Shown in pieces: positions 6,798 through 37,628 of a DNA stretch of 64,000 bases (its first letter is position 1; each line of letters starts with the position of its first letter). The DNA lies in assembly GCA_000092065.1 (NCBI GenBank), contig CP000584.1; one strand, written 5' to 3'. This DNA is from Ostreococcus lucimarinus (Eukaryota). Under the pieces are notes generated by a model, which saw nothing but the letters and a program-made list of their open reading frames with translations, was not told where the DNA came from and did not search any database. Made by a program: the position numbers and the translations under genes.

Positions 6798-7580
6798 ATG
6801 GCGGTCGCGGCGCGACCGTCGCGATGGGACTTTCGCGCGCGAGTCTTCTTCGCGCTGTGCGCCGTGACGTGCGCGAGCGGGTGCGCGTGCGCGTGCGCGG
6901 CGCTCGCGCCGGGCGTCGTCAGACGACGCGCGGACGCGCTCTTCAGACTGTCGATTTACGCGTCGACGAGCGCGTTCGCGTACAGGATCGCGTACGGCGC
7001 GGCGACGAGCGTGAAGGCGAGAGATTTTAAGGCGCTCGGCGCGCATCTGTCGCGAAGCGCGCGCTCGAACGGGGGGCAATACATGATTTACGGGTCGATG
7101 GCGTTGGCGAGCGCGCGACGCGGCGGCGCCAACGCGCCGCAGTTGGCGCCTTTGATCGTGCTGAGCGCGTATCAGGTGCTGGCGATCGGGCATAAAGTGT
7201 GGGAGGACGCGGATAGTAAAACGATGTGGTGCAAGCTCGGGTTCGGACGCGTGTTCGACGCGGCGCAGCGAAATATGGAGCTGGCGCTCGCGATTTGCGC
7301 GACGATGGAGGTGTCGCTGATGACGACGATTCTTCTGGATTTAGCGAGTCCTCAGCGACGTAGTTTTAGCCGAGTGATCGCGTACGCGTTTTGGCTTCGA
7401 TCGAGGTATCACTGTCACGATAACACGGTGTTTCGCATCAAGTTTACCGCGCACGATACGGCGCACTACCACAGAGAGGTTTGGAAAATGTTGGACGAGA
7501 AGGTGGCGTCCAAGGTGCCGGCGCTTCGAAAAGCCCTGTCGCCGTTCGCGACGTGGTTCGCCACGCCGTCGGCGTCGTAA
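6798..7580 (+). CDS. hypothetical membrane protein
   Basis: It starts at an ATG 75 bp from the divergent methyltransferase start. The product is hydrophobic with several TM segments (VFFALCAVTCASGCACACAAL; LAPLIVLSAYQVLAIG; LALAICATMEVSLMTTILL). It is the C-terminal part of a long ORF (5745..7580) whose upstream part is antisense to the methyltransferase. Confidence 0.5.
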   Translation: MAVAARPSRWDFRARVFFALCAVTCASGCACACAALAPGVVRRRADALFRLSIYASTSAFAYRIAYGAATSVKARDFKALGAHLSRSARSNGGQYMIYGSMALASARRGGANAPQLAPLIVLSAYQVLAIGHKVWEDADSKTMWCKLGFGRVFDAAQRNMELALAICATMEVSLMTTILLDLASPQRRSFSRVIAYAFWLRSRYHCHDNTVFRIKFTAHDTAHYHREVWKMLDEKVASKVPALRKALSPFATWFATPSAS

Positions 7581-7634
7581 TGTTGTAACGAGCGTGTTGA
7601 ATATTAATCATCATCTAAAAGTTCGTCCGATCTA

Positions 7635-8979
7635 TCAATATTTTGGTGGCACTTTGCACGCGTCGATTTCTCTCGCCGCGGCGTCAAAGCCCGGGAACAT
7701 CATAAAGTTTGGCGAAATCCCTGTCTGATCGATGTCGACGAGACCTGGGGTGACGTACTTACCCACGGTGAGTACCATCCCACTCAAATCACTGAGTTCG
7801 TACACGCTCTGAATCAAACCCTTGCCGTACGTCTTACTCCCGACCACAGTCGCTCGACAGTTGTCCTTCAAAGCGCCGGTTAAAATTTCGCTCGCAGAAG
7901 CGCTTCTGCCGTTGACAAGAACAACCAGCGGAACGTCAGCGGCGACGACAGGGTCATTTTTCGACGTCGTGATCGCCTTCAGCTTAGTCGGTAGTTGAGA
8001 ATCAGATCCGTTTCTCGCGGTTTTTGTCGCCGAGACGTCGGTATCGCGTTTGACGCCTCCGGCGACGACTCGACCTTCGGTGTACGCGATGGTCGAATCC
8101 GCAGGTAAAAATAATCGAGCAATCTCCACACCAGCTTGCACTAATCCCCCAGGATTGTCGCGTAAGTCTAGAATATACGCGTCTGCTCCTTGCGTCCTTA
8201 AATCCGTGATCGCTCTCGCGATATCGCGCTCGGCGAGCGAGTTGAACTCGCGAAGCCGAATGTAACCGACGTGTCCGCCCTCCAGACGCATGCTCACTGG
8301 ACTTTTCGGCGCTTCGAATTGACTGTCTCGCGTCAGAGAAACGACGCGCGGGACGTCTTCGCCTGTGCGCGAGATTGTTAGATCCACGCTCTTCCCGTCA
8401 GCCTCTTGAATGAGCGAAGACACCTGAAACGCGCTCAAGCCGCGCACGAGTTCGCCGTTGACGGCGACGATTTCATCATCCTGCGCCACTCCAGCCTTCA
8501 TCGCGCTCGAGTCGAGCACCATTCCCAGCACGCGCACGCGTTCAGGGTCGTCCGCATCTTCCGCGATGTTCAAACCGACGCCGGTGATGTCGTATTTCAA
8601 CATCGAAGTGAACCGATCCGGCTCGATGAAGCGCGTAAACTTATCCCCGAGCGTCCCCAGCATCGACTTAATCATCTCGTACGCCTCCTCGCGACTTTGA
8701 GGCGGATTCGCCTCGTGTTCGGCCTTGATCGCCTCCCACGCCGCGCGATCGAATCCGTCCGACTCAGATTTTCTCGCCGGTAAAAAGTTGTCGAAAACCA
8801 ACCCCCACGCTTCGTCCAAGATGGTCGCGTCCGTCGCGCCCTCCGATTCCGCCTCCGCCTCCGCCGCTTCGGCCGCGATCTCGCTCACCAGTTCCACCGC
8901 CGACGACACAGATTTCGTCCGCGCGTCCCCTCGACCGCGCGCGACGTCATCCGCGAACGCCGCGGGCGTCCCGAACGTC

Positions 8980-9029
<50 letters not shown>

Positions 9030-9383
9030 GCGCGCGCGCGCCGTCGGCCCCATCACCGCTCGCGCGATCGCCTCCGCCCACGATGACGTCGTCGTCATCG
9101 ACGCCGACGCGTCGCCGCGCGCGCGCGCGCCGTCGCCGCTCCTCGCGCGCGCGGCGCCGCTCGTTCGCCGTGACCCATCGCCCGCGCGTCCCGACGACGA
9201 CGTCGCGCACCGCGCGCGCGCGTGCGCACCGCGCGTCGTCGCGCGCGACGCGCCCGCGTTCGCGCCACCGCGCGGCCACGCCTCGGGGCGCGCGCTCGAC
9301 GCGCGCGCGACGTGGAACCGCATCGCGCGCGTCGCGCGGTGACGCGATTTCGCGACGCGACGCCGCGCTCGTCGTCGCGCCAT
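7635..9383 (-). CDS. ctpA: C-terminal processing peptidase (S41; photosystem II D1 CtpA-like) with bipartite transit + thylakoid-lumen signal
   Basis: There is a PDZ domain (GLNIAEDADDPERVRVLGMVL...VNGELVRG) and S41 catalytic-region motifs (ILDLRDNPGG...; VLVNGRSASASEILTGALKDN with Ser; TYGKGLIQSV with Lys). The N-terminus has an Ala-rich hydrophobic core ending in AFA before DDV, a typical lumenal cleavage site. The start is taken as the first ATG at 9383; the ORF extends to a GTG at 9494. Confidence 0.9.
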
Positions 9384-9933
9384 GCTCGCCGCGCGCGATG
9401 CGCTCTCGCCGCGCGCGTGCGCGCGCGCGTTCGCCCTGCTCGTCCTGCTCGGCGCCCCGCTGTTTGCGACGCGCGGGGACGCGACGGCGTTCACCGTCGT
9501 CGACGGCGTCGCGAGTTGGCTGAGCGCGCAGAACGGCGGAAGAAAACTCGCGGGATGGCGCGCGGTGGTCGTCGAGGCGTGCTATTACCCCGACAGCGCG
9601 ATCGCGCGCCTTAGCGGTCGATCGGTCGAGGCGACGGCGACGCGGATCACGCGAAAGGCGGCGCAGATGCGCGAGGCGCTCGGCGAGGCGGGGGCGCGCG
9701 AGTGCGCGCTGGGGTGCGCGCTCGCGCTGCTGGGGAGCGTCAAGTATTGCGTGAACGGCGATATCGGACCGTACGGCGTGCTGGCGGCGCTCGAACTCGG
9801 GTATTCCGTGTTCGCGAAGGGACTTCCCGCGATGCGGGCGAACGTGGTGGGGACGACGTGCGTCGTCGTCTTCGGCGCGTTGTCGTCGCCGAGCGCGCGC
9901 CGACGCGCGCGGGCGAGGGCGAAGCGAGATTAA
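9382..9933 (+). CDS. possible small secreted/membrane protein (hypothetical)
   Basis: The 183-aa ORF has a signal-like N-terminus (AFALLVLLGAPLFA), a later hydrophobic segment and very high GC3 like real genes. Its ATG shares a CATG palindrome with the CtpA first ATG, so both models cannot be fully correct. Confidence 0.3.
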   Translation: MLAARDALSPRACARAFALLVLLGAPLFATRGDATAFTVVDGVASWLSAQNGGRKLAGWRAVVVEACYYPDSAIARLSGRSVEATATRITRKAAQMREALGEAGARECALGCALALLGSVKYCVNGDIGPYGVLAALELGYSVFAKGLPAMRANVVGTTCVVVFGALSSPSARRRARARAKRD

Positions 9934-14564: not shown

Positions 14565-16250
14565 ATGCGCGTCTCGACGTCGACGCGCGTCTCGATCGCG
14601 GTCGCGTCGACGCCGCGTCGCGCGCGTCGGCGACGACGCGCGAACGCGACGCGACGACGCGCGTTCGACGACGACGACGACGACGACGACGGACTCGATG
14701 GACTCGTGCGACGGGCGTGCGCGCGAATCGGACGCGGCGACGAGGAAGCGAAAGAGATGACGGCGCGATTGCGGGCGAATTGGTTCGAGACGGCGGAGGA
14801 CGTGCGAGGGATGGGGCCGGAGGACGCGCGCGCGGCGGGAATGCCGGCGAGGCTGTACGCGAGCGTGCGGGCGACGCTGGACGAGGACGAAGAAGACGAC
14901 GTAGAGGCGAGAAATGGGGAAACGAAGCGCGAGGAGAGCGAAAGTGGGTGGATCGGGGGGGCGCTGCCGGGCGCGGGAACGCGCGCGCCGACGGTGACGC
15001 GAGAGGGAGGGACGGCGCTCGCCGACGTGCGCGTGACGCAACGGCGACGATTGAAACCGTTTTCTCTGCGCGGCGAAGAGGTGAGCGCGGAGTTGGAGGA
15101 AGAGTTGAATACGCTGGTGAGAGATTTGACGTCGAGACGCGTCGGTGGTGGGCGCGCGCCCGTGCGAGAGCGCACGGCGATGAATCACGTCGCCGTGGCG
15201 AAGCAATTCATGGGATGGTTGTGCCGAGAGTCAGAGCACGCGAGCGAGTTTGCGACTCTGAGCGTCGATGGACGCGTGGTGTTGCGTCCGGGCGTGTCGT
15301 TGCGCGACGCGTTTCCGAAGCGCGAATCCGTAGGCGCGAAGTACGCGATAGAATACGTTCAGTGGCTCAGCGACGAGCGTCGCATCAAATCGACGACGGA
15401 GGATTTTCAGCTGCGAAGTCTCGTCGCCTTGGCGAAGTGGGTGCACGCGTTCGTCGAAGACGACGGTATAGCGCCGCCGTGCGTGCAAGAGCTCGTTCGA
15501 GTGCAGCGATCGGCGCGCGATCGCGCGAAAAACGCCCCACACGCCGCGGACGACGACCGAAAATGGCTCGAATGGGATCAGTACTTGGCGCTCGTCGAGC
15601 ATCTCAAACTCGAGTGCGCGCCGCTGGATTGCAACGGCAAAGAGCGCTCTGAGCGCGAAATCGCGATGAGCGTGCAGCGCTATTTATTGTTCGCCATCTT
15701 GGCGTGCATTCCCGATCGCCAGCGAACGTTGCGCGAGCTGCAGTTGAACAAGACGCTCTTTCGCGACGCCTCCACCGGCGCGTGGATGGTGCGTCACGGC
15801 AGCGACGATTACAAAACGGGCGGCGCCTACGGCGAGCGACCCGCGCTCGTGATCGATTCTCGCGTCTATCCAGCGCTCGAGAGTTGGCTCTCCACCCACC
15901 GAGCCGCGTTATCGCCGTCCCACGACTTTGTTTTCACCCGCCCCAACGGCACGCCCTGGACGGTGAGCGAATTGTCGCGAACGTTTTCCCGCGCCGCCCT
16001 TCGCGTCACCGGCCAAAAGACCAATCCCCACTTGATTCGCGACATGATCGTCACCCACGTCCGCTCTCGCGGCATCGCCAGCGACGCCGAGCTCGAGGCC
16101 TTGGCTCGTTTCATGGGTCACTCCAGCGCCATGCAAAAGTCCACCTACGACCGCCGCACGACGCAAGAAAAAGTCAACCCGGCGTTGTCGTTGATGGCCA
16201 ACGTCAACGCCGCCGCGCCGCCGTCGCGACCGGCGTCCGCGCCGTCCTAG
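14565..16250 (+). CDS. tyrosine recombinase (phage-integrase/Crypton-like) domain protein, stand-alone
   Basis: The catalytic domain has box I Arg in DRQRTLRELQL, the beta2-3 Lys in YKTGGAYGERPALVID, box II H-x-x-R in NPHLIRDMIVTHV, and LGHS-type ARFMGHSSAMQKSTYDRR with the catalytic Tyr codon at 16146-16148. An upstream SAM-like core-binding segment (RERTAMNHVAVAKQFMGWL) is present. The ORF opens at GTG 14469; the first ATG is at 14565. There is no RT, RNase H or transposase DDE domain nearby, and composition matches the host. Confidence 0.75.
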   Translation: MRVSTSTRVSIAVASTPRRARRRRRANATRRRAFDDDDDDDDGLDGLVRRACARIGRGDEEAKEMTARLRANWFETAEDVRGMGPEDARAAGMPARLYASVRATLDEDEEDDVEARNGETKREESESGWIGGALPGAGTRAPTVTREGGTALADVRVTQRRRLKPFSLRGEEVSAELEEELNTLVRDLTSRRVGGGRAPVRERTAMNHVAVAKQFMGWLCRESEHASEFATLSVDGRVVLRPGVSLRDAFPKRESVGAKYAIEYVQWLSDERRIKSTTEDFQLRSLVALAKWVHAFVEDDGIAPPCVQELVRVQRSARDRAKNAPHAADDDRKWLEWDQYLALVEHLKLECAPLDCNGKERSEREIAMSVQRYLLFAILACIPDRQRTLRELQLNKTLFRDASTGAWMVRHGSDDYKTGGAYGERPALVIDSRVYPALESWLSTHRAALSPSHDFVFTRPNGTPWTVSELSRTFSRAALRVTGQKTNPHLIRDMIVTHVRSRGIASDAELEALARFMGHSSAMQKSTYDRRTTQEKVNPALSLMANVNAAAPPSRPASAPS

Positions 16251-16648
16251 CGATCGCGGAGTCGATCGATTTTCGGTCTCGACCGCGGCGTCCGGATCGG
16301 ATCCCGTCGGCGCGCGCCCGCGATGAAACCAAACCAAACCAAACGCCACCGAACCAAACACAGACACGACGCGACCACGCGCCGCCGCGCGGTGACCTCG
16401 CCGCAGTCGGGGACGCGAGTCGCGACTCGCCGATTCATCACCGCGCGTCGCCGCGGCGCGACGACGCGCGAGAGCGGAGAAAGGGCGCTCGAATCGTCGA
16501 TCGCGAATCGCGTCGAACGCGCGACGCGACCGACGCGCGCGACGCGCGCGACGCCGCGCGACGCGACGGCGCGGGACGCGCGATCGACGCCCGGACGCGA
16601 ATCGACGGGAGGCGCGAGCGACGCGAGGAAACGTCGGCGACGCGCGCG

Positions 16649-17779
16649 ATGGCGCCGAACGACGGCGAACGAACGGCGTTCGCGCTGAAGATCGCGCGAG
16701 GGCGCGTCGTGGAGGTGACGAAGACGAACGGGGAGACGATCGAGGGGGTGTTCGCGGAGACGACGAAGAACGGCGGCGAGGCGACGATCAAGTACGGATG
16801 GACGAAACGCGAGGCGGGGGCGAAAGAGCGGGCGCAGAGGAGCAAACCGATGGAAACGATGGCGATCGCGATGGATGAGATCGCGAGCATCACGGCGAGA
16901 GACGTGGGGATGAGCGATTTGGCGGTGGGGCCGAGTCGAATGAACGACGACTTCACCGACGGCGGCATCTCGAGAGGGGCGACGGGACAGGATCGCGAAC
17001 TCGTCGCGTGGGCGCCGGAAGAGGGCGATGGAGCGAGTGGGATGACGCTCGAGGAAGAGGCTGGGATCGGGGCGAAGAAGGCGGCGGCGGCGGCGTGGGG
17101 GAAGAAATCCGGCGGACAGTGGGACCAATTCTCCGCCAATAAGCAACTCTTCGGCGTCGACACCAAGTTTGACGAATCCTTGTACACGACGACGATCGAT
17201 AAGGCCAAGGGAGGGATCTCCGAAGCCGAGGCCGCGCGCATCGCGTACGAGATTCAGAATCAAATCTCGGACAACCCGCACGTCGCGGAGGAACGTGGCC
17301 AAAAGGCGCTCGCGGATTACGACGAAGAGGAACGATACTCCTCGGTGTTGCCCACGCCGAAAGGCGCGGCGCCGCCGACGCCGGCGTGGGGCTCGGGCAA
17401 GGTGCCGAGCACCGTCGCGCAGCACGCGGAAAAGAAGCCCGCGGGTGAGAAGGCGAAGGACGTCGCCCAGCCCGCGGACGCGTCCAAGTCCAAGCTCAAC
17501 GCCGACGCCAAGTCTTTCTCTCTCAGCGCCAAGGCGGCCGAGTTCGTGCCGACGTTCAAAAAGCCAGCCGCGCCGCAAGTGCCGCCCACGGGACCGCAAA
17601 TGATGATGTACCCGGGTATCCCGCAAATGCAAGGCCAAATGATGTACATGCCGCAAATGGGCATGGGCGTTCCGCCGCAAATGCGAGGCATGATGCCGGG
17701 TATGCCGTACATGCCGCAACAAGGCATGGGCGTCCCGCACGGTGCGCCTCCCACACGACCACCCGAGGGTGAGAACTGA
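16649..17779 (+). CDS. ataxin-2-like protein (Lsm + LsmAD + PAM2 PABP-binding motif)
   Basis: The Lsm fold is RVVEVTKTNGETIEGVFAET and the LsmAD is GGQWDQFSANKQLFGVDTKFDESLYTTTID. The PAM2 motif is SKLNADAKSFSLSAKAAEFVPTF. A Met/Gln/Pro-rich C-terminus is present. The start is an internal ATG of ORF 15704..17779, whose upstream part is out of frame with and overlaps the recombinase gene. Confidence 0.85.
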   Translation: MAPNDGERTAFALKIARGRVVEVTKTNGETIEGVFAETTKNGGEATIKYGWTKREAGAKERAQRSKPMETMAIAMDEIASITARDVGMSDLAVGPSRMNDDFTDGGISRGATGQDRELVAWAPEEGDGASGMTLEEEAGIGAKKAAAAAWGKKSGGQWDQFSANKQLFGVDTKFDESLYTTTIDKAKGGISEAEAARIAYEIQNQISDNPHVAEERGQKALADYDEEERYSSVLPTPKGAAPPTPAWGSGKVPSTVAQHAEKKPAGEKAKDVAQPADASKSKLNADAKSFSLSAKAAEFVPTFKKPAAPQVPPTGPQMMMYPGIPQMQGQMMYMPQMGMGVPPQMRGMMPGMPYMPQQGMGVPHGAPPTRPPEGEN

Positions 17780-18051
17780 GCTCGCGTTCGCGTACACAAC
17801 GAGCGAGTGCGTTCCATAGGCGTCGCGCGCGCGCCATCCGAAACCGTCAAACCGTCGACGCGCTCGCTCGACGTTTGATTTTGTCCGTCTCCGACGACGC
17901 AATAACACATTACCGACAAAACATATTATCCAGGCGACTCCGACGGCGCGTCGCGTCTTCGCCTTTCGCGACCGTCGACGCGAGCGCGAAACGACGTCCC
18001 GACGGGACGACTGGCGACCCCGCGCGGCGGTTACCGCACATCGCGCCGACG

Positions 18052-19173
18052 ATGCGCGTCGCGCGCGCCTTCGTCGTCGCTTTCGCGCGCGCGCGCCCGC
18101 GAGTGACGCGCGCCGCGCGTCCGAGCGCGCCCGCGACGAAACCGCGCGTCTGCGCCCCCCTCTGCGCGTCCGCCGACGACCGCGCGCTGCACAGCCTCGA
18201 CGGCTGCGACGACGCCAGCGACGCGCCGTACGTCGTCGTCAAGCGCGTCGACGCCCACGACGTCGGCGCGCTCGGTGATGTGTTACTTTCTCTCGGTGCC
18301 TCGTCCGTGTCGACGATCGACGCCGACGCGGGGACGGAGGACGAGCACGAAATCTTCAGCGCCAACACGTTCGAGGAGCAGGCGAGCGACAAGACGAAGG
18401 CGCGCGTTTGGGCGAAGTGCCACGTGACGGCGTACTTTGAAGATCACGCGCGAGCGCGCGCGGGAATCGAGGCGGCGGAAGAAATTTTGGGGATTTCGTT
18501 GGAAGCGTCGTACGCGGAGTCGAAATCAAACGATTGGGTGCAGGCGGTGAAGGATAGCTTTACGCCGACGAAAATCGCGGACGGGCTGTACATCGTGCCG
18601 GATTGGTGTAAAGACGTCGATGCGAACGCTGTGAACATCGCGCTGGAGCCGGGCATCGCGTTCGGTACCGGTGAACATCCGACGACGCGGTTGTGCCTGC
18701 GCTGGCTGAAACAGACTTTGGCGAGGCGAGGGAAGACCGAGCTCGTGGTCGATTTCGGATGCGGCTCGGGCGTACTCGCGATCGGAGCGCTCGTCATGGG
18801 GGCCGACCGCGCGGTGGGCGTGGATTTGGCGAAACAAGCCGTGCAGAGTTCTATCGACAACGCCAAGTTGAATGGTGTGGAGGATCGCTTGACGACGTAT
18901 CTTGGCGACGGACGCGATCCCGGAACTCCGGGCGCGAACGGGCAGGCGGACGTCGTCGTCGCGAATATTTTAATCGGCCCCGTGCTCGAGTTGGAGCCAC
19001 TCTTCGCGGGGTACTGTAAAGTCGGTGGCGAAATCGCGTTGAGTGGGATTTTATACGGTGAGCAGAGCGCATCTGTCGTGGCAAAGTACGCGCGTCATTT
19101 CGACAATATTTGCGTCGTCGAGGAAGGTGGGTGGGCGTGCGTGCACGGCGTACGAAACGGAACGCCAGTCTGA
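18052..19173 (+). CDS. prmA: ribosomal protein L11 methyltransferase (PrmA family), probable organellar
   Basis: The hallmark GTGEHPTTRLCLRWL is followed by SAM motif VVDFGCGSGVLAIGA and then VVANIL. A basic R/A-rich presequence follows the first ATG at 18052. The ORF-track start at 17875 is a TTG in an AT-rich leader. Confidence 0.85.
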   Translation: MRVARAFVVAFARARPRVTRAARPSAPATKPRVCAPLCASADDRALHSLDGCDDASDAPYVVVKRVDAHDVGALGDVLLSLGASSVSTIDADAGTEDEHEIFSANTFEEQASDKTKARVWAKCHVTAYFEDHARARAGIEAAEEILGISLEASYAESKSNDWVQAVKDSFTPTKIADGLYIVPDWCKDVDANAVNIALEPGIAFGTGEHPTTRLCLRWLKQTLARRGKTELVVDFGCGSGVLAIGALVMGADRAVGVDLAKQAVQSSIDNAKLNGVEDRLTTYLGDGRDPGTPGANGQADVVVANILIGPVLELEPLFAGYCKVGGEIALSGILYGEQSASVVAKYARHFDNICVVEEGGWACVHGVRNGTPV

Positions 19174-29005: not shown

Positions 29006-32000
29006 ATGAAGATGAACCGCTTTTCCGTTGCCCACGCGTCAGAATTCTGCATTCAGCGACTCGCGCGGCGAGCACGCCGCGCTCGAAACGCCGCCAAGTT
29101 GTCGCAGGAGAACAACGATGTGTGCGCGCGCGACGAATCCACCGTCGCGCGCGACGAAGCGCGCCAAGGCCTGCTGTCGCTCGCGCGCGTCGCGAGTCGA
29201 CGCGTCGATCGCTCGTTACGACGCATGCGCGCGTCAATCAGTCGTAGACGCTCCAACAAAGGAACGGATGGCGAAGCGTGCTTAGTTTTACACGGATGGC
29301 GAAGCAACGCCGACGTGAGCGCGCTGCATGCGCGAAGGTTGCGGCTTTTGAAGCGATTTAGAAAGGCGTCGTGCGTGAATGGCTCGGAGGAGGCGCCGCA
29401 CGCGGCGGACGAGACGACGTCTGAATTAATCGATGGACCGTGGTTCTCCTGGGTCGACGACGCGAGTGATGATACGTTTGAAAATTTGGAAAGCGAGCGA
29501 GCGACGGCGTTAATGACGGCGGCGCGATCGGTGGCAAAGTTTGCCATCGAACACGGGCCGTTCAAGTGCGCGGTGGGATTTTCGCAAGGCGGCGCAATGA
29601 TCACGTTGTTGTCCAACCCGCAGGTCTTAAGCATGCTGGGGATCGAAGGGGGCTATTTGTGGGACAGTGCGGTGATTTGTTGCGGCGCGTCATCTTCATT
29701 GCTCGATCTCGCGGCGACGAAGTGGGGTATCGACGTGCGCTCGTCGGCGTCGCCGATGCCGTCGTTGCACGTGTTCGGTTTTCAAGACAAATTCAAACCA
29801 CAAGGTGAAGTGCTCATGAATACGTTCCGTGCGTACGACAGCGAGGACCAATTGATCAGACACGCTCTGTATTTAGACTGCGGTCACACGTTGCCGGCGT
29901 CGCTCGAGACGGACACTGGTTTTCACGCCGAATTCGACGCCTGGCTCGAGGCGGCGACCGAGGCGGCTCCCCGTCGTTACAGGTCAAACGAGTTCGATGA
30001 AGATGTTTTGTTCGACGACATCAAGTCGCTAGAGTATAAGTCGCTCAAGTTTAGTAATCAGCCCACCATCGAGCGCGCTGAGGCTGATATTGAGAGAGCA
30101 GAAGCGGAGGGCGCACGCGCCGCCCAAGCGACGACATTTGCTTCAGCCAGAACTCTCGCCCGAAACATCGATGTAAGCACCGCAACTGCGCCGAGCGGGA
30201 ATGATCTCACGTTCAACACGCGCTGTGCGAGTTTGGTTCAGTGTAATGTGTCGCTAAAGTCAAGCAGAGTGAATATTCTTGACTTTCTAGCGAGGGCGCC
30301 TCGAGCGTCTCCGCTTCTTCGAAGCTTGGACGGGGCAACATTGACGTACGGGCAAGCGATCGACTTCATAACAAAAGGGGACGGTGATTTACGTAAACTT
30401 GGGGCAGATTCGTCATCTGTTTTTGCGTATAATGTCCCTCCAGGCCCGGTCGGTGCGCTAGCTTTTCTCGCCGTCGCGTCGCAGTGCACCGCCGTCCCTT
30501 TGGACCCCGGCATCGCCGAGGAAGACGCCTACGAAGCCCTGACGTCGTGTCGAGTGTCAATGCTTGCGTTATTTCGAGGAACCGACACTGAAGCAATTGA
30601 AACGGCAGCTTCTCGAGCTCATATACCGATTAAATGGTTCGTGATGACGGAAGCTGATACTAAACTTGCCGGTTTGTACGCGCCGGAATCGTCTCAATCG
30701 TCAACGAGTGACGTCGCGCCGCTCGTACAATCGAGTGAAACGATCGGTCTTTTGCTTCGAACTTCTGGGACGACATCCAAGTCAAAAGTTGTTCCGTTGG
30801 TTATCGGCGCGTTGACTTCAAACGGCGCTACGCTGGCGGCTTCTCTTGAACTCAAAGCTTCAGACGTTTGCATCAACGCCATGCCTCTTTTTCACATCGG
30901 TGGCCTTTCGTGTTCCATCTTGGCGACGATCGCGGCGCACTCTTCTGTCATCTGCTGTCGTAAGTTTGACGCTCAATCGTTTTATGACACCATTACGACG
31001 TCGCATGAAGTCAAACCGACGTGGTACTCAGCAATACCGACGATTCATTTGACAGTACTGCAATACGGTCAAGCTGTGGCTCGTGGCGCAAAGCCATCGC
31101 ATGCTCTTCGTTTCATACGCTCTGGCGCGGCGGCGCTCAGCCATGCCGACGCAGAAAAGTTGCAACGATTTTGGGACGTGCCGATAATACCGACGTATAG
31201 TATGAGTGAACAAATGCCGATCACTGGTAAAGGTGTCCACGTTCCGCTCGCCGAGCGTGCGGATACCGTGGGCCAGCCTCTCTGTTGTTCGTTTGCGCTC
31301 GTCGGTGATGGTCATTGCAGACTCACGGCACCTTTTGGACAGCAAGGTGAACTCGTCATCAGCGGTGATAACGTGATGACGGCGTATCAAGATGCGGAAG
31401 AAGCTAACAATAAGACTTACTTCTACGTTGCCGATAAGCGTTACCTTCGCACTGGCGACATCGCAAAGATGGACCACGATGGGTTTGTGTACTTGACTGG
31501 TCGTAGTAAGGAACTTATCAAGCGCGGGGGTGAGCAAGTGAGCCCATTAAAAGTCGAGGCTGTGCTCGTGCAGCATCCATACGTGCGTGTTGCGGTAGTC
31601 TTCAGCGTTCCTTCGGCGCTTTGGGGAGAAGAAGTGGGCGCCGCGATCGTATTGACCGACGACTTTGATGGGCACGAAGACTCGGCGCTCTCTTCAATCA
31701 AGTCTTTCATGGGAACATCGAAAGAACTATCTCGATTTGAAATTCCTGTACACTGGAAATTTGTCGCTGACGAAGATTTACCCAAAACATCGACGAAAAA
31801 GTATAAGCGTGCGGGTTTGGCCGAGATTTTAAACGTCGCGAAGAAAGTCGACGCGTGCACTTTGCGGCACTCTAAAAAGGTGACGACCCCGTCGCATGGT
31901 CTTGCAGGCTTGCGCTATTGTATGGCTGTAGGTGTGATGTTTAACCACATAGGTGCCATTTGGCAAGGCGAGGACGAACGTGATCCTTTGACGTATGGTC

Positions 32001-33667
32001 CAGCGTGGATGTCTGCCAAGGCGACGACGTTTTACTTTCCAGCGACAACTTTCTTTGTGCTGGGTGGCTTCACGCTCAGCGCCGCACTGAACGGCAAGGA
32101 AATCACAAAAGGAACATGGGGATCGTTCTATAATTCAAGGTTTCAAACACTCTTTCCTCTGTACTTGCTGTCTTTGTTTCTCGGTCTGATCAACGTCCTC
32201 GTGGTGTGTCGCCCGGAAACTTTTAGTAGCGAATTTAGCTGGCAACCACATAACGCAACGCTCACGCTCGACTCTGGGGCGTGGGCGCAATGCCAGACCG
32301 GTCCAGTGGAGATGCCCTACGGCGCTTGGCTCTTCATGACCCTCATCGTTTTCTCTTTCGGGTTGCAAACTTGGTTCCCGCTGTGGCTTCTCAGCTCGTG
32401 GTTCATGTACTACACGTGGTTCAACGGCGTTTACTATTTCATTATTCTCGTGTTTCCTTTCATGCACAACGCGCTCGCTCGCGTCAAAGGCGAATTCAAA
32501 GCCGTACTGAGATGGTTCATCGTTTACTGTGTCGGTACTCTTATCACCGCCGGGCTTTTGGGATTGTACTACGCCTTACCGGCGTGGGAAGAGCACGACG
32601 ATGTCGCCAAAGTGAAGAGCTGGAAAGAAAATGTGCAGAACATCTACGCACTCAGCACAATGATGTTTCCGCCGTATTGGGTGCCATGTGTCGGTACGGG
32701 TATGGCCGCATACTTTTGGTACGACGCCGTACGGCCAGTAGAGTCGCACAAGCGCGCGTTGTACGGCCACTGCGCCGATGTGCTCACGCTCGCATTTTTC
32801 GCCTTCCATCTCGCCCATTTCCTTGACATTGATTGGCCTTATCCGACCAACGTCACGGGCAAGATGTGGGAAGTTGTACCCGAAGAGCATCATCGCTGGG
32901 ATACAGGCATCAATCGCTATGTATGGAGCGTCATGATCACTCGGTTGTATTCTCCGTTGATCGCCGTCTGGATCGCTCTGCTGTCGATACCGAAGGGCAG
33001 CCGAACGACTCGCCTTCTTGAATCAAACTTACTAAGCAAAGTGCTCGCCCCGACGAGTTATGGTTGCTTCTTGTTCCACCAGATCATTGGACAGTGGTAT
33101 TGGTGGGCGACTCGTAATGGAAATGGCATCAAGACCGCAGACGTTGGCGACAAGACGTCGTGGATGTGGTGGGCGTATCCGAAGGAATATTACTGGTTCT
33201 CGCCGCAGCCGTTACCTGTGGCGTGGTACGAGTTCTTCTTCATCGTCGGAATGACGACGTGCTTTTCGGCGGCGGTAGACAGGTGGCTCAATACTCCACT
33301 GACGGTGCTATGGATCAAGTTTATAACCTTCTTCCGGAATATTATATGGCCGAATTCGGCGAAGAGCGCGGAGACTTCGGGTAGCAGCGAGGAGTCGTCG
33401 CCTGAAGACGCGGTGATCAAAGCAGTCGCCGCGGTCACGGGCGTCGACGAACGAGTGTCTCTCGACGACTCCTTTGATGAGATCGGTCTCGTTTCTGTCG
33501 GTCTGCCAGTGCTCGTGGGTATAATCAACGCCGGCGAACAATTCGCCGTCATCTCGGCTCAAGAAATAGCGACGTGCGCGAACCTTCGTGACGTCGTCAG
33601 AATAATCGCTTCCAAGCGTGAATCGGCTCGATCGAGTGTAGGGTTTGGAACTAGAAGCTCTCTGTAA
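29006..33667 (+). CDS. multidomain fusion: FSH1-type serine hydrolase + AMP-dependent synthetase/ligase (adenylation) + acyltransferase-3 (OafA-like) 10-12 TM domain + C-terminal carrier-protein-like domain
   Basis: This is one uninterrupted 1553-aa ORF. The FSH1 part has CLVLHGWRSNAD...GFSQGGAM. The ANL adenylation motifs are LLRTSGTTSKSKVVPL, LFHIGG, TYSMSE, YLRTGDIAKMDHDGFVYLTGRSKELIKRGGEQVSPLKVE and PKTSTKKYKR. The Acyl_transf_3 N-motif is GLAGLRYCMAVGVMFNHI, followed by many aromatic-rich TM helices. The C-terminus (VIKAVAAVTGVDERVSLDDSFDEIGLVSVGL) resembles an ACP/PCP 4'-phosphopantetheine site. Confidence 0.8.
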   Translation: MKMNRFSVAHASEFCIQRLARRARRARNAAKLSQENNDVCARDESTVARDEARQGLLSLARVASRRVDRSLRRMRASISRRRSNKGTDGEACLVLHGWRSNADVSALHARRLRLLKRFRKASCVNGSEEAPHAADETTSELIDGPWFSWVDDASDDTFENLESERATALMTAARSVAKFAIEHGPFKCAVGFSQGGAMITLLSNPQVLSMLGIEGGYLWDSAVICCGASSSLLDLAATKWGIDVRSSASPMPSLHVFGFQDKFKPQGEVLMNTFRAYDSEDQLIRHALYLDCGHTLPASLETDTGFHAEFDAWLEAATEAAPRRYRSNEFDEDVLFDDIKSLEYKSLKFSNQPTIERAEADIERAEAEGARAAQATTFASARTLARNIDVSTATAPSGNDLTFNTRCASLVQCNVSLKSSRVNILDFLARAPRASPLLRSLDGATLTYGQAIDFITKGDGDLRKLGADSSSVFAYNVPPGPVGALAFLAVASQCTAVPLDPGIAEEDAYEALTSCRVSMLALFRGTDTEAIETAASRAHIPIKWFVMTEADTKLAGLYAPESSQSSTSDVAPLVQSSETIGLLLRTSGTTSKSKVVPLVIGALTSNGATLAASLELKASDVCINAMPLFHIGGLSCSILATIAAHSSVICCRKFDAQSFYDTITTSHEVKPTWYSAIPTIHLTVLQYGQAVARGAKPSHALRFIRSGAAALSHADAEKLQRFWDVPIIPTYSMSEQMPITGKGVHVPLAERADTVGQPLCCSFALVGDGHCRLTAPFGQQGELVISGDNVMTAYQDAEEANNKTYFYVADKRYLRTGDIAKMDHDGFVYLTGRSKELIKRGGEQVSPLKVEAVLVQHPYVRVAVVFSVPSALWGEEVGAAIVLTDDFDGHEDSALSSIKSFMGTSKELSRFEIPVHWKFVADEDLPKTSTKKYKRAGLAEILNVAKKVDACTLRHSKKVTTPSHGLAGLRYCMAVGVMFNHIGAIWQGEDERDPLTYGPAWMSAKATTFYFPATTFFVLGGFTLSAALNGKEITKGTWGSFYNSRFQTLFPLYLLSLFLGLINVLVVCRPETFSSEFSWQPHNATLTLDSGAWAQCQTGPVEMPYGAWLFMTLIVFSFGLQTWFPLWLLSSWFMYYTWFNGVYYFIILVFPFMHNALARVKGEFKAVLRWFIVYCVGTLITAGLLGLYYALPAWEEHDDVAKVKSWKENVQNIYALSTMMFPPYWVPCVGTGMAAYFWYDAVRPVESHKRALYGHCADVLTLAFFAFHLAHFLDIDWPYPTNVTGKMWEVVPEEHHRWDTGINRYVWSVMITRLYSPLIAVWIALLSIPKGSRTTRLLESNLLSKVLAPTSYGCFLFHQIIGQWYWWATRNGNGIKTADVGDKTSWMWWAYPKEYYWFSPQPLPVAWYEFFFIVGMTTCFSAAVDRWLNTPLTVLWIKFITFFRNIIWPNSAKSAETSGSSEESSPEDAVIKAVAAVTGVDERVSLDDSFDEIGLVSVGLPVLVGIINAGEQFAVISAQEIATCANLRDVVRIIASKRESARSSVGFGTRSSL

Positions 33668-34039: not shown

Positions 34040-35674
34040 TTAGCTTCGCTCGCGCAGGCGTCGATCAAAGTCGGAGAGGTCGTAATCATCGCCGGCGCCC
34101 TCGTTGGACGTGTACACGGCGTCACCCACGACGCGCTGGGACGCAGCTGAGCTCGCGGCGGCGAGCTTGGCGGCTAAACGAGGCTCTGGACTCGCGATAC
34201 GGCGAGCTGCGAGCAATCGAGAGTTATTGCGAGCATCGATTTCCCGGTTCTTGCCTTGGTTGCGGAAATAGCGCAACAGCGGAACGACGAAGAATAATAC
34301 GCCGTAGCTCAGTAAACCGGGGAGCAAGCCCGAGAAGGCGCGCGCCAACTCCACGTACTCTCGGGTGCGGTACATGATTTGCGGGTCGTTAATCATCTGC
34401 GCCAAAATCACCACCCCCACTAAGTTCGCAACGCCGAGTAAACCCGCTTGAATCTTTTGCGACGGCTCGGCGAGCGAAAACACCCATCGCTCCTCTTGCG
34501 CCAACGCCTCACTTTCGCCTCTACTTCGCGCCGTTGTTTTTCCAGCGGTGGACTCCATGTTAGGAAATCGATAAATGATCGATCCTGTGACGGTATTCAC
34601 CTCTGGCGTGCCCTCGAAGCGGGTGAGCGCGGGCAAGACAAAGGACTCGTCTTCGTATCCCGCCGTGTCCAGAAACGGCGCCAACTGCTCCGCCGTCACA
34701 ACGCCCTTATTCTTTTGAATCAAGCGTCCAACCAACTCCCAACGCCGCTTTTCGAAATCCAAGTTCGGATCGCCGTCGCCGAAAACAAAACTGAAGACAG
34801 CCTCAAAAAAGTTCATCTCTCTGTCGCGTCTTCGCGGTCGGCGATAGTAGTACGGATCCCAATACCAAAACAAATCAAACGGCGAAATGTAAAAGCGCGG
34901 CCCAGCGAAGCCACCACCGCGCCGATCTGAACGATCGTCACTACTCTTGGCGCTCATGAGGGCGAAGATGGCGGTGTAGACAATCATCACGCTCGCCACG
35001 AGCGACGTTCCAAACGCCACGCGAAAAACGTACGAAGCTAAGCTTTTCGCCCCGCTCACGATCGGTTCGATCTTCATCTTGAACGATTTCGAGCTCAAAA
35101 TCCCTCGTGTCGACCTGGGAAACACGTATGTGAGATCGCCCGCGCTGGATACTTCCAAAGTCGCTCCTGTGTCCGCCGCCAGCGCGTTGAGCGCCTTTTG
35201 CGTCTCGAACACGCTCGCCCCCGAAATCGAGCTCACGTCCCCCACAGTGGCGCGATACTGCGCCTTCTCGATCGCTTTAAGTGTTTTTTCGCGCAATTCA
35301 GCGTTCAAATCATCGCTCTCCACGCGTCCTCCCGGGGCGACGGCGAGCTTGTCGTCCTCCGCGAGCGCGCTCTCGCGAGGCAGGTCCAACTCGACTCGAT
35401 CGTCGTAGTCCCATCCTCCTCGCGCGCGCGTCGTCACCGCTCCATCGCGCGCGCGCGCGAAGCGCGTCTTTCGCGCGACGCGCCCGTCCTCAGCGCGCGT
35501 CGCCGCGTCGCTCGCCCGCGCGCGCGACCTCGTCGGCGTCATCTTGGACGACGCGCGAACGACGACGACGACGACGCGCGGCGACGACGACGACGCGCGC
35601 GCTCGAACGGCGCCGACCGCGAGCGGCGGCATCGCGCGCGAGTTGTGCGTCGTCGGCACCGCGGTGGCGCGCAT
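34040..35674 (-). CDS. conserved plastid-type membrane protein (Arabidopsis At5g03900-like family), with transit peptide
   Basis: An N-terminal S/R/A-rich presequence is followed by LREKTLKAIEKAQYRATVGDVS...LEVSSAGDLTYVFP, TM helices and the conserved FEAVFSFVFGDGDPN...RWELVGRLI...VTAEQLAPFLD. The start is taken at an internal ATG; the ORF extends to 35773. Confidence 0.6.
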   Translation of the reverse strand: MRATAVPTTHNSRAMPPLAVGAVRARASSSSPRVVVVVVRASSKMTPTRSRARASDAATRAEDGRVARKTRFARARDGAVTTRARGGWDYDDRVELDLPRESALAEDDKLAVAPGGRVESDDLNAELREKTLKAIEKAQYRATVGDVSSISGASVFETQKALNALAADTGATLEVSSAGDLTYVFPRSTRGILSSKSFKMKIEPIVSGAKSLASYVFRVAFGTSLVASVMIVYTAIFALMSAKSSDDRSDRRGGGFAGPRFYISPFDLFWYWDPYYYRRPRRRDREMNFFEAVFSFVFGDGDPNLDFEKRRWELVGRLIQKNKGVVTAEQLAPFLDTAGYEDESFVLPALTRFEGTPEVNTVTGSIIYRFPNMESTAGKTTARSRGESEALAQEERWVFSLAEPSQKIQAGLLGVANLVGVVILAQMINDPQIMYRTREYVELARAFSGLLPGLLSYGVLFFVVPLLRYFRNQGKNREIDARNNSRLLAARRIASPEPRLAAKLAAASSAASQRVVGDAVYTSNEGAGDDYDLSDFDRRLRERS

Positions 35675-35762
35675 GTCGATCGAAGCGAAGGGCGCGTCGT
35701 GAGATGACGCGATGCGACGCGAAGGACGAGCGAGCGACAGTGCGAGACGCGCGACGCGCGCG

Positions 35763-37628
35763 ATGTCTCGCAAGGGCGGATGGGGACGCGGGGACGAGGA
35801 TGATTATTACGACGATTACGACGACGACGAGGCGTACGACGACGACGACGAGGCGTACGACGACGACGACGAAGCCGCAGGCGCCGGGCGCGAGGCCCTC
35901 GAGCGAGCCGAGGATGGCGAGCGCGCGACGACGGGCGCGAGGGCGGCGAAGACGAGCAAGGCGATGGAGTTGATGAAGACGAAACCGACGCCCACGCGCG
36001 TGGGGATGAAAGAGATCGAGGCGCGGATGGCGGCGGAGAGAAACGCGAGGTATCCCGCGGCGCCGCGCGGGCCGAGCGGAGGCGGCGCGAGCGCGGGGAA
36101 GTTTGCGTTCGATACGCCTTCACCGGACGCGGCAGCGGCGGCGGCGCGAGCGCGGGGGAGTAAGTCTGGGGCGAGCGCGGCGATGGAAACGACGGAAACG
36201 CTCGTGAAAGAATTTGCGGCCAAGACGCGAGTCGGCGGCGACGCGACCGCGTTTGCGGGATACGAAGCTTCGAGCGCCGAGCGCGCGGCGTACACCTCAC
36301 CGGAGGGCGGTGACGTGCACGTCGTGATATTAGGACACGTTGATGCGGGGAAATCGACGCTTAGTGGGCGATTGATGTACGCTTTGAAAGCGGTCGATGA
36401 CAGAGCGATGCATAAAAACGTGCGCGATTCCAAGGCGAGCGGGAAATCGTCGTTCGCCTGGGCTTGGGTGATGGACTGTAGACCGGAAGAACGAGAGCGC
36501 GGGGTGACGATAGACGTCAGCATGAAGCGATGTGTGTTAGATGGACATCGACAGTTGGTAGTTTTAGATGCTCCTGGGCACAAAGATTTCGTGCCGAACG
36601 CGATTTCCGGCGCGTCGCAAGCCGACGCGGGCGTTTTGGTCATTGACGGCGCGATGGGTGGATTTGAAAACGGTTTCGCTGCGACTCCAGGTCACACGGG
36701 ACAAACGCGCGAGCACGCGCGATTGGCGCGGGCGCTTGGTTTACATTCCCTCATCGTCGTCATCAATAAGATGGACTGCGTTGAGTATGGAGAGGAGCGA
36801 TTTAGATTTGTCGTCGATGCGCTTCAAAACTTTCTCATCGACGACGTCGGTTTTAGCCAAGAACAGCTCACGTTCGTGCCGGTTTCGGGGATTGAGGGTA
36901 CAAATATTTCGCCCGATGACGCGGCTGCATTGCCCGATGCATTGGCCTCGTGGTATCGAGGCCCGACGCTCGTAGACGCGTTGCGAGCGGTTAAAATTCC
37001 ATCTCGAGGAGCGCCGAAACCGCTTCGCATGCCAATCGCAGACATCATCACCGAAGTGCGCTCTCTCGGTGGAGCCGCGTGCGGTGGTAAGATCGAAGCT
37101 GGAAGCTTGATGAAAGGTCAAAAGCTACTCGTGATGCCGGCCAACGTTTCGGCCACTGTGAAGTGCGTGGAAGTGGACGGAATAGCCGTCGACTTTGCGC
37201 CGATTGGCACATCCGTGGACGTCGGCTTGAGCGACGTGGATTCGCGGCATTTAGAAGTCGGGAGCGTTTTATGCCATGCGTCGCATCCAATAACGCCCAC
37301 GGATGAGATTGAAGTCCGTGTGCTCACGACGGACATGCTTCGTGTGCCTTTACTCAAAGGCTCAAGGGTTGTTTTGCATTCGCACATGCTCGCGTGCGAC
37401 GCAACGATTGAGGAACTCGTCGCGCAAGTGGACACGGTGACGGGAGACGTGGTAAAGGCAAGTCCTCGGTGTATTACGCGCGAACAGAGCGCTATTTTGC
37501 GTATTCGCACGTCTAGGAATATTTGCGTCGAACCGGTCGAGATTTCACCGACGTTAAGCCGCGTGACGCTTCGCATGAATGGCAAAACCATGGCGCTCGG
37601 TGTGGTGACTGCGATTTGGCGCTCTTAG
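35763..37628 (+). CDS. HBS1: HBS1-like translational GTPase (eRF3/EF1A superfamily, mRNA surveillance)
   Basis: An acidic Tyr-rich N-terminus (MSRKGG...DDYYDDYDDDEAYDDDDEAYDDDDE) precedes GTPase motifs G1 GHVDAGKST, G2 RGVTID, G3 DAPGH and G4 NKMD. The beta-barrel domains II and III follow. Confidence 0.85.
   Translation: MSRKGGWGRGDEDDYYDDYDDDEAYDDDDEAYDDDDEAAGAGREALERAEDGERATTGARAAKTSKAMELMKTKPTPTRVGMKEIEARMAAERNARYPAAPRGPSGGGASAGKFAFDTPSPDAAAAAARARGSKSGASAAMETTETLVKEFAAKTRVGGDATAFAGYEASSAERAAYTSPEGGDVHVVILGHVDAGKSTLSGRLMYALKAVDDRAMHKNVRDSKASGKSSFAWAWVMDCRPEERERGVTIDVSMKRCVLDGHRQLVVLDAPGHKDFVPNAISGASQADAGVLVIDGAMGGFENGFAATPGHTGQTREHARLARALGLHSLIVVINKMDCVEYGEERFRFVVDALQNFLIDDVGFSQEQLTFVPVSGIEGTNISPDDAAALPDALASWYRGPTLVDALRAVKIPSRGAPKPLRMPIADIITEVRSLGGAACGGKIEAGSLMKGQKLLVMPANVSATVKCVEVDGIAVDFAPIGTSVDVGLSDVDSRHLEVGSVLCHASHPITPTDEIEVRVLTTDMLRVPLLKGSRVVLHSHMLACDATIEELVAQVDTVTGDVVKASPRCITREQSAILRIRTSRNICVEPVEISPTLSRVTLRMNGKTMALGVVTAIWRS

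Follow-up and report, generated by a model that had tools for sequence, protein, structure and literature searches.

What does a gene do that joins a serine hydrolase, an adenylation domain, a membrane acyltransferase and a carrier protein in a single reading frame? The question is raised by positions 29006 to 33667 of a 64,000-nucleotide stretch of the Ostreococcus lucimarinus genome (contig CP000584.1 of assembly GCA_000092065.1), referred to below as the window. A first reading of the bare DNA sequence (the original prediction) had recognized there a 1553-amino-acid open reading frame (ORF) fusing an FSH1-type hydrolase, an ANL-type adenylation (A) domain, an Acyl_transf_3 (AT3) membrane domain and a carrier-like domain, and had proposed that the product activates a carboxylic acid and moves it across a membrane. 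The results presented here make it rather probable, in our judgment, that the ORF specifies a self-contained, ATP-driven transmembrane acyltransferase combining acid activation, carrier loading and transfer across the membrane. As to the narrower proposal, namely that this is the first AT3 family whose acyl donor is a covalently tethered phosphopantetheinyl carrier, charged by the protein's own A domain, and not acyl-coenzyme A (acyl-CoA), we see about an even chance. The parts are known already; their combination and the donor mechanism that it implies are undescribed.

Results

A conserved four-domain gene

The frame opens with an ATG and appears in the ORF list exactly as first described. 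It is the second-longest open frame of the window, and its product is 100% identical to a database protein (P0001). The chance of 1553 stop-free codons, calculated from the ORF's own base composition, is about 1e-28; GC content (0.541 overall, 0.61 at third codon positions) lies near the values of the neighbouring genes. Ten full-length orthologue clusters, 61-72% identical to the O. lucimarinus protein (68% for the one from Ostreococcus tauri, record XP_003079071.2), keep the whole architecture. The segment is therefore a real conserved gene and not an accidental read-through, a point on which the original prediction proved correct. That separate or intron-containing genes read through in the assembly is scarcely credible: the chance figure and the ten clusters speak against it, the same uninterrupted architecture recurs in other prasinophytes (Pycnococcus provasolii, Pseudoscourfieldia marina) and in more than 40 bacterial clusters, and the transcript-derived proteins P0155 (Trinity) and P0173 (a run-derived MERC entry) span the A, AT3 and carrier domains.

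An exhaustive phmmer search of 1.84 billion representative sequences returned only 211 matches at E <= 1e-3 and 61 at E <= 1e-30; in every long match the matching part lies at the C-terminal end. Searching with the AT3-carrier half retrieved more distant eukaryotic relatives (38-52% identity), P0155 among them. A scan of bacteria, with one genome per species, identified 22 loci in Marinobacterium, Neptuniibacter, Marinobacter, Azonexus, Zoogloea, Pseudomonas (including P. chlororaphis), Pseudoduganella, Acinetobacter, Aeromonas popoffii, a Hyphomicrobiales metagenome-assembled genome, Leptolyngbya, Nodosilinea and further cyanobacteria related to the last two. In 19 of these the matching frame is open over some 1370-1500 codons and colinear with the algal ORF, and the five bacterial proteins scanned for domains contain the same four in the same order. 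The family is small, compact and fixed in its architecture. Modules described in the original prediction as normally acting in trans thus form a conserved fusion in bacteria and several algae. The accompanying statement that no eukaryotic counterpart is known needs qualification: counterparts exist in databases (the O. tauri, Pycnococcus and Pseudoscourfieldia proteins) under names that refer to the A domain only, but literature searches for the four-domain architecture, or for the bacterial gene cluster described below, found no description.

Public records name these proteins "AMP-dependent synthetase/ligase", "oxalate--CoA ligase", "acyl-CoA synthetase", "AMP-binding protein" or, once, "Carrier domain-containing protein"; JGI records use "acyl-CoA synthetase/.../OafA/YrhL". 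NCBIfam holds no model for the AT3-carrier or FSH1 parts, and a tblastn search of 72,556 plasmids with the bacterial AT3-carrier region gave no match. Rough neighbour-joining trees of the FSH1-A half and of the AT3-carrier half were congruent, with an algal clade apart from the bacterial clade; the fusion was therefore inherited as one unit. As to the bacterial horizontal origin contemplated in the original prediction, the two clades are separate, but trees of this roughness do not tell in which direction the gene would have moved between bacteria and algae. A cyanobacterial (plastid) ancestry of the algal gene was rejected, as in these trees the algal sequences fall outside the bacterial clade that contains the cyanobacteria.

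The adenylation domain and its pocket

Pfam recognizes the A domain through AMP-binding (PF00501; residues 442-794, 125.8 bits against a cut-off of 29.9) and AMP-binding_C (PF13193; residues 849-932, 37.7 bits against 24.5). The ANL motifs TSGTTSKSK (the P-loop), TYSMSE, YLRTGD, GRSKELIKRGGEQVSP and PKTSTKKYKR are all present, and the core set is complete (TYSMSE735, RTGD818, GR833SKELIKRGGE, K932). Residues E735 (A5), D818 (A7), R833 (A8 hinge) and K932 (A10) are invariant (30/30). The closest solved structures are oxalyl-CoA synthetases: 6qjz (E 3e-62), AtAAE3 (5ie0) and yeast Pcs60 (8aff).

The oxalate pocket comprises eight residues, and AtAAE3 Ser289 and His319 show conservation among oxalyl-CoA synthetases alone (PMC8905533). 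The 6qjz alignment places Ile631 at the pocket Val, Gly632 at His, Gly707 at Cys, Ala708 at Ser, Ser732 at Ala, Met733 at Met and Pro738 at His. The oxalate-specifying Ser289 and His319 thus become Ala708 and Pro738, and His223 and Cys295 become Gly632 and Gly707, in all homologues; three positions change from His, Cys and Ser to Gly, Gly and Ala. Oxalate as the substrate was rejected on account of these residues, both oxalate-specificity positions being gone, and for the same reason the name "oxalate--CoA ligase" is unjustified. Bacteria and algae hardly differ in the three motifs that line the pocket, HIGG(L/I)S, RSGAAAL and TYSMSExMPI, suggesting that both probably activate one common acid, small or medium in size and lacking a second carboxylate. 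The carboxylic acid of the original prediction can in this way be narrowed by the exclusion of oxalate and, probably, to a non-dicarboxylic compound.

The membrane domain and its topology

Bacterial family members match Acyl_transf_3 (PF01757) above threshold (36-53 bits), and several orthologues carry a precomputed match. The first transmembrane helix (TM1) contains R970-YCMAVGVMFN-H981, an instance of the R/K-X10-H motif described for OafA and OafB (PMC9558356), which parallels R11-X10-H22 of the phage Sf6 protein Oac. His981 is invariant in 31 of 31 sequences and R970 is found in 28 of 30 homologues. A second landmark, RXXR in the first cytoplasmic loop, corresponds to R1045-F-Q-T1048 when aligned by eye with Oac R73-A-R-R76, before a shared (I/L)FP. 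Its first Arg (Arg1045) is kept throughout the 31 sequences. The last position is never basic, being occupied by Thr, Gly, Val, Ser, Ala, Gln, Asn or Pro. A role in binding the nucleotide phosphates of CoA has been proposed for the second Arg of RXXR, and one may speculate from the sequences that the family-wide loss of this Arg fits a nucleotide-free donor. When the family AT3 alignment was compared with the single Oac sequence, hhalign could not align the two usefully (probability 0.7%); RXXR and R-X10-H were therefore matched by direct inspection of Oac and with the help of the Pfam match.

The AT3 fold, as described for OafB, consists of ten transmembrane helices plus a short re-entrant helix/loop between the third and the fourth (PMC9833829; the ten-helix fold is also given in PMC9558356). 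In the AlphaFold2 model, DSSP assigns a short helix to residues 1105-1117, followed by an unstructured hydrophobic stretch, which matches the AT3 re-entrant element. Averaged over 31 bacterial and algal sequences, the net charges of the successive loops are -1.3, +3.1, -2.0, +1.7, -2.0, +1.2, -2.2, +1.5 and +0.3, and that of the C-terminal flank after TM10 is +1.7; by the positive-inside rule, such an alternation would be given by ten helices whose two ends both face inward. The outer loop after TM3 is net negative and contains two invariant cysteines, Cys1068 and Cys1096 (31/31); residues 1068-1136 would represent the extracytoplasmic/re-entrant loop 3-4 of the AT3 fold. The topology called for by the original prediction is hence predicted to be N-in/C-in, a disposition that would place hydrolase, A domain and carrier together on the cytoplasmic face, where the AT3 cavity opens.

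Hydropathy analysis detected no hydrophobic segment, and hence no eleventh helix, after TM10, where the model has a helix (model residues 490-508) with a positive flank and then a low-pLDDT linker. In the bacterial homologues the carrier starts some 25 charged residues past TM10, the intervening segment being short (e.g., in P0166). We also considered a carrier placed outside by an eleventh helix, like the SGNH domain of OafA, since hydropathy alone counts 11 helices. This arrangement was rejected: the segment 1105-1130 corresponds to the AT3 re-entrant loop, the loop charges do not agree and the bacterial linker is too short and too charged. A Pfam scan of the ORF product found no SGNH domain; the C-terminal domain has a carrier fold.

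The carrier domain

Scanned alone, the C-terminal domain scores 19.7 bits for PP-binding (PF00550), and 13 of 14 family carrier domains examined in the same way match this model at E <= 1 (best E 5e-5). Within the last ~90 residues of 14 homologues, down to 18% identity, Gly1479, Gly1494 and Ser1497 are invariant; Ser1497 and Gly1494 remain so in all 31 bacterial and algal sequences. A carrier profile searched against the PDB retrieved mostly acyl and peptidyl carrier protein (ACP/PCP) chains, the best being 1vku (E 5e-4), with Ser1497 aligned on the phosphopantetheine serine. The fold is a four-helix bundle with the conserved Ser at the N-terminus of helix 2, a strong match to carrier proteins. 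The candidate Ser in GLVSV singled out by the original prediction is therefore a family-wide feature, the motif being G-L-(V/A/G/S)-S-(V/L/I) and differing from the canonical (D/H)-S-(L/I). There is precedent for a non-acidic site in the carrier of 10-formyl-tetrahydrofolate dehydrogenase (2cq8), which has GAASV; this carrier is phosphopantetheinylated. Taken with the Pfam scan, these results uphold all four domain assignments, including the AT3 and carrier domains, which had been flagged as uncertain and were confirmed independently.

The FSH1 hydrolase

Pfam assigns residues 92-301 to FSH1 (PF03959; 53.6 bits against a cut-off of 21). The triad Ser193-Asp261-His294 and the GFSQG elbow are invariant in every homologue covering the region. 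A family profile matches yeast FSH1 (1ycd; E 5.8e-6) with the nucleophile elbows aligned; the family profile was required, as the domain alone gave no phmmer match in the PDB. FSH-type hydrolases occur in fungal polyketide synthase (PKS) clusters, the alpha/beta-hydrolase LovG is a releasing thioesterase (PMC10512364), and an FSH1 domain is part of dinoflagellate hybrids of PKS and nonribosomal peptide synthetase (NRPS) (PMC8283056). Yeast FSH1 is given as a lysophospholipase in a reference cited in PMC11878206. By analogy, our guess is that the domain might serve as an editing or releasing thioesterase acting on the acyl-carrier, or might supply the acid by ester hydrolysis.

Neighbours of the bacterial genes

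Neighbouring ORFs of 21 bacterial loci were clustered, and the clusters identified with Pfam and NCBIfam. A gene of the PEBP family is found in 16 of the 21 loci. In about 15 it lies directly upstream on the same strand and is YbcL-like, some 70-300 bp ahead of the four-domain gene (loci L003-L024; e.g., L016:6203-6769 and L012:6439-6981); every adjacent PEBP has a Sec signal peptide of typical form. Fifteen loci contain an AraC-type regulator, 8 an ElbB-type DJ-1/PfpI protein (296 bits against a cut-off of 180) and 9 an Sfp/EntD-type phosphopantetheinyl transferase (PPTase; 4PPT_N+ACPS) within about 3 kb. The PPTase-linked loci belong to Marinobacterium, Neptuniibacter, Azonexus, Acinetobacter and one further contig; P0166, on the bacterial-looking contig L002, adjoins an Sfp-type PPTase gene. 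Genes for short-chain dehydrogenases (SDR) are found in cyanobacterial loci and in some Acinetobacter loci. Condensation, ketosynthase (KS) or other tailoring genes were not conserved around the bacterial genes.

Genomes carry only a few PPTase genes, and as a rough estimate the chance of such a linkage is below 1% per locus. The presence of a PPTase near the gene in 9 of 21 loci, across several genera, makes it likely that the fused domain is a real, modified carrier, and the linkage provides strong contextual support for it. That one step takes place outside the membrane is suggested by the secreted PEBP, and the two invariant cysteines of the outer loop agree with an extracytoplasmic side of the system. 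A 2022 review states that PEBP/YbhB proteins are rarely found in conserved gene neighbourhoods (PMC8793217), so the association seen in these sequences appears to be unreported so far. The bacterial system comprises the core enzyme and a periplasmic YbcL-like PEBP, often with an ElbB-type DJ-1 protein, an AraC regulator and a PPTase; the algal gene is the core enzyme in an ordinary nuclear context.

Other features of the gene and its surroundings

The coordinates of the gene's features are collected in Table 1. No two orthologues agree in the length and sequence of the N-terminal leader, which is without a counterpart in bacteria, whose homologues begin 10-30 residues ahead of the FSH1 domain. 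It may be an organelle-targeting peptide or a disordered leader; a targeting function would alter which membrane holds the enzyme.

Table 1. Features of the four-domain gene (positions in the window)
Feature	Residues	Position	Strand	Basis or remark
Complete single-exon ORF, FSH1 - A - AT3 - carrier	1553 aa + stop codon	29006..33667	+	ORF list
N-terminal extension, variable, basic, Arg/Ser/Ala-rich	~91 aa	29006..29278	+	not alignable among orthologues
FSH1-type alpha/beta serine hydrolase	92-301	29279..29908	+	Pfam PF03959
FSH1 triad	Ser193 (in GFSQG); Asp261; His294	29582-29584; 29786-29788; 29885-29887	+	alignment
Linker, hydrolase to adenylation domain	302-429	29909..30292	+	low conservation, no Pfam match
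ANL adenylate-forming domain, N- and C-subdomains	~430-940	30293..31825	+	PF00501, PF13193
AT3 (Acyl_transf_3) membrane domain, ten predicted TM helices and re-entrant segment	965-1427	31898..33286	+	
TM1 motif R-X10-H	970-981	31913-31948	+	
Loop after TM3 and short hydrophobic helix	1068-1136	32207..32413	+	DSSP of model; loop charge
Amphipathic helix and acidic Ser-rich tether, TM10 to carrier	1428-1464	33287..33397	+	hydropathy; model
Carrier (ACP/PCP-like) domain	1465-1545	33398..33640	+	
Putative phosphopantetheine site in GLVSV	Ser1497	33494-33496	+	

Some relatives depart from the standard form. In L002 (bacterial metagenome contig ERZ928430 k127_301867) an AT-rich insertion of about 200 bp (7790-8003), located in the loop after TM3, breaks the homologue into two ORFs (4889-7804 and 8001-9413). 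Imperfect inverted repeats (CATTAGAGTTTGAT ... ATCAAACTTTAATG) flank the insertion, which resembles a miniature transposable element; taking it out would restore a single frame. P0391 (1702 aa, JGI metagenome) and P0395 (1270 aa, EukProt) have an extra N-terminal isochorismatase-family domain (PF00857) before FSH1 and the A domain, and are 43-45% identical to the Pseudomonas protein, to which they are closer than the prasinophyte proteins are. The P0395 record is labelled Skeletonema dohrnii CCMP3373 and could be either a diatom gene or a bacterial contaminant. P0012 (2330 aa, L001:5201-12193) is a distant relative from a GC-rich eukaryotic contig with Kelch, leucine-rich-repeat and C2-domain neighbours. 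Its extra N-terminal ~650 residues have no Pfam match and one hydrophobic segment, and its FSH1 domain is broken by long low-complexity inserts.

Within the window the gene is flanked by ordinary eukaryotic genes, upstream one for a Tcp11-domain protein and downstream one for an HBS1/eRF3-like GTPase. The longest frame of the window lies from 47046 onward (+ strand, frame 2; ~2192 codons). GC content is about 0.62-0.69 over the first 25 kb and about 0.52-0.60 thereafter, the four-domain gene lying in the lower-GC part; Ostreococcus genomes have low-GC "outlier" chromosome regions. Two divergent ORFs, 34040-35773 (-) and 35712-37628 (+), overlap at their 5' ends (window 35539-35973). The HBS1-like protein starts with an acidic, Asp/Tyr-rich low-complexity stretch, DDYYDDYDDDEAYDDDDEAYDDDDE, and the GC-rich stretch there (35539-35973) is also spanned by several long shadow ORFs rich in Arg and Pro. 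Short GC-rich tandem repeats are located at 16518-16627 and 18090-18137 (units CGCGA and GCGACGCGA, period 34); around them AT skew is unusually high (0.285 for 16001-18000).

Discussion

A proposed reaction sequence

The following scheme would account for the activity of the four-domain protein. A PPTase would convert Ser1497 of the C-terminal carrier to the holo form. The ANL domain, with its motifs intact, would adenylate the carboxylic acid and thioesterify it onto the pantetheine thiol of the carrier, so that its product would probably be a carrier thioester rather than a CoA thioester. Tethered by the amphipathic helix and the acidic Ser-rich linker that follow TM10, the carrier would sit at the cytoplasmic mouth of the AT3 cavity. 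The acyl-pantetheine arm might then enter the cavity in the way that acyl-CoA inserts its pantetheine arm in OafB and HGSNAT; acetyl-CoA has been modelled within the cytoplasmic cavity of OafB (PMC9833829). The thioester would be presented to His981 of TM1 near the opposite face, and the acyl group would pass to a luminal, periplasmic or external acceptor. On the same side as the A domain, the FSH1 hydrolase would most likely edit or release acyl-carrier, like type II thioesterases and LovG; alternatively, it would free the acid substrate from an ester. The self-contained activation and transmembrane transfer envisaged in the original prediction thus gain support from the predicted N-in/C-in topology and the invariant catalytic residues in every domain, as well as from the bacterial PPTase and secreted PEBP genes (see above), transfer itself being deduced.

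Evidence against the scheme and competing explanations

Several points weigh against a carrier-fed transmembrane acyltransferase. In the O. lucimarinus product Acyl_transf_3 covers residues 965-1391 at 29.0 bits (E 7e-7), under its cut-off of 31, and PP-binding covers residues 1469-1532 at 12.2 bits (E 0.22), under a cut-off of 20.8. The position ahead of the carrier Ser holds Val, Ala, Gly or Ser and in no case the customary Asp or His, and 12 of the 21 bacterial loci are devoid of a PPTase gene. Published opinion prefers acyl-CoA to ACP as the donor for AT3 enzymes (PMC9558356); the closest solved relatives of the A domain are CoA ligases, so acyl-CoA could serve AT3 here too. The topology comes from prediction and the positive-inside rule, the part assigned to FSH1 is a guess, and the scheme as a whole is drawn from sequence, gene context and predicted structure.

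Some of these points speak for a different division of labour, in which the A domain is a CoA ligase feeding AT3 locally, FSH1 is an unrelated esterase and the C-terminal four-helix domain serves for docking, for regulation or in a second reaction. Characterized AT3 enzymes do use acyl-CoA (PMC9558356), and both the carrier motif and the sub-threshold PP-binding score would be as expected. We nonetheless regard an acyl-CoA donor as decidedly unlikely in view of the invariance of Ser1497 and Gly1494 from bacteria to algae, the strong fold match to carrier proteins, the dedicated PPTase gene in 9 of 21 bacterial loci and the absence throughout the family of the RXXR arginine proposed for the CoA nucleotide; the non-acidic site itself recurs in the 10-formyl-tetrahydrofolate dehydrogenase carrier. 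A second possibility keeps the enzymology of the carrier-fed scheme but with another substrate class, acceptor and biological role, namely lipid re-acylation in the manner of Aas/LplT: FSH1, as a (lyso)phospholipase, would free a fatty acid, the A domain would load it on the carrier and AT3 would re-esterify it not onto a glycan on the far side but onto a lipid of the membrane, whether a lyso-lipid, a glycolipid or a mycolate-like acceptor. In NCBIfam the A domain does match fatty-acid ligase families best (FadD7, 238 bits; long-chain fatty-acid-CoA ligase, 206 bits) and the acyl-[ACP]-phospholipid O-acyltransferase PRK06814, but all score far under the curated cut-offs of 476-1349. The Aas-type proteins P0056 and P0058 are found among the distant matches, but neither the ORF product nor the scanned homologues have a PlsC domain (PF01553). 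The Gly and Ala substitutions that distinguish the pocket from that of oxalate ligases would suit a fatty acid, although the closest solved relatives activate a C2 diacid. The lysophospholipase assignment of yeast FSH1 (in the reference cited in PMC11878206) and the ability of the AT3 enzyme TmaT to acylate a lipid (PMC9558356) also agree with this idea, as does a bacterial partner from a "phosphatidylethanolamine-binding" family, a name that is no proof of lipid binding in bacteria (PMC8793217). On balance re-acylation seems unlikely.

The A domain is also 30-36% identical to those of NRPS-like proteins with condensation and PP-binding domains (P0013-P0019). On the model of macrolide and aureolic-acid AT3 enzymes, one could imagine a minimal NRPS-like synthase whose A domain and carrier make an acyl thioester, whose FSH1 domain releases or cyclizes it, and whose AT3 domain O-acylates a small molecule during export. 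FSH1 hydrolases are known from PKS/NRPS contexts (see above), AT3 enzymes such as CmmA acylate antibiotics (PMC9558356) and SDR genes adjoin the gene in cyanobacterial loci. We consider such a synthase very unlikely: conserved condensation, KS or tailoring genes are missing around the bacterial genes, the conserved partners are instead a periplasmic PEBP, ElbB, AraC and PPTase, and a pocket nearly identical from Pseudomonas to Ostreococcus argues for a common primary metabolite and not for a lineage-specific natural product.

Relation to known systems

Functionally, the nearest system to the carrier-fed acyltransferase proposed here would be Dlt, the D-alanylation system of Gram-positive bacteria. 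The logic would be common to both: loading of a phosphopantetheinyl carrier in the cytoplasm by an ANL enzyme, then delivery of the carrier-borne acyl group to an extracytoplasmic acceptor by a polytopic membrane acyltransferase, with a partner outside. DltB, however, is an MBOAT protein (PF03062) with another arrangement of helices (PMC9833829), whereas the four-domain protein is of the AT3 type with no MBOAT match; DltA, DltB, DltC and DltD are separate proteins, whereas here a single chain also includes an FSH1 hydrolase; and the A domain resembles oxalyl-CoA synthetases more than the D-alanine ligase DltA, the bacterial partner being PEBP instead of DltD. Because DltB is an MBOAT, the relationship is one of analogy and not of membership: the Dlt- and OafA-like logic perceived in the original prediction holds as a functional likeness, but not as inclusion in the Dlt system.

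With the AT3 O-acyltransferases (OafA/OafB, OatA, Oac and the structurally related lysosomal HGSNAT) the family shares the AT3 domain, R/K-X10-H and, as predicted, the ten-helix N-in/C-in core with its re-entrant loop 3-4; presumably it also moves an acyl group from a pantetheine thioester in the cytoplasm to an acceptor across the membrane. Known members take acyl-CoA, whereas the four-domain proteins have their own A domain and carrier and no second RXXR Arg. The AT3-SGNH proteins (OafA, OafB, OatA, PglI) possess an eleventh helix and a C-terminal extracytoplasmic SGNH domain, neither of which is found here. The family is very divergent from all of these, as the small number of phmmer matches and the failure of the Oac comparison illustrate. 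Aas (acyl-ACP synthetase/2-acyl-GPE acyltransferase; also in LplT-Aas fusions) is likewise a single membrane-associated polypeptide that couples ATP-dependent activation, a carrier thioester and transfer to an acceptor on the membrane side, but it uses a PlsC-type acyltransferase and free cellular ACP, without AT3, fused carrier or FSH1. The oxalyl-CoA synthetases AAE3, Pcs60 and LsOCS, the best solved matches (E 3e-62 to 1e-52), share all the ANL core motifs and differ at the pocket positions listed above. NRPS didomains of A domain and carrier accompanied by trans-acting or fused hydrolases (type II thioesterases, LovG, dinoflagellate FSH1) likewise bring an A domain and a carrier together with an alpha/beta-hydrolase whose substrate is the thioester; in the present family a 460-residue membrane domain stands between A domain and carrier, the hydrolase is N-terminal and of the FSH1 type, and there is no condensation or KS domain.

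Implications

Public annotations mask the true nature of the four-domain proteins, and the oxalate label is contradicted by their pocket residues. If the proposed scheme is correct, a single polypeptide would constitute an ATP-driven machine acylating an extracytoplasmic or luminal glycan, lipid or metabolite, and in bacteria this acylation would run together with a periplasmic PEBP-family protein. It would then be an AT3-based functional counterpart, independently reached, of the MBOAT-based Dlt system. The passage of acyl groups through the membrane by AT3 proteins is still argued from models; a donor fused to AT3 would offer a natural stoichiometric donor-enzyme complex for structural trapping. 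The conserved neighbourhood would also provide a first testable functional link for the bacterial periplasmic YbcL-like PEBPs, and the family as a whole would hint at an unrecognized surface or lipid modification present in both common environmental bacteria and abundant marine picoalgae.

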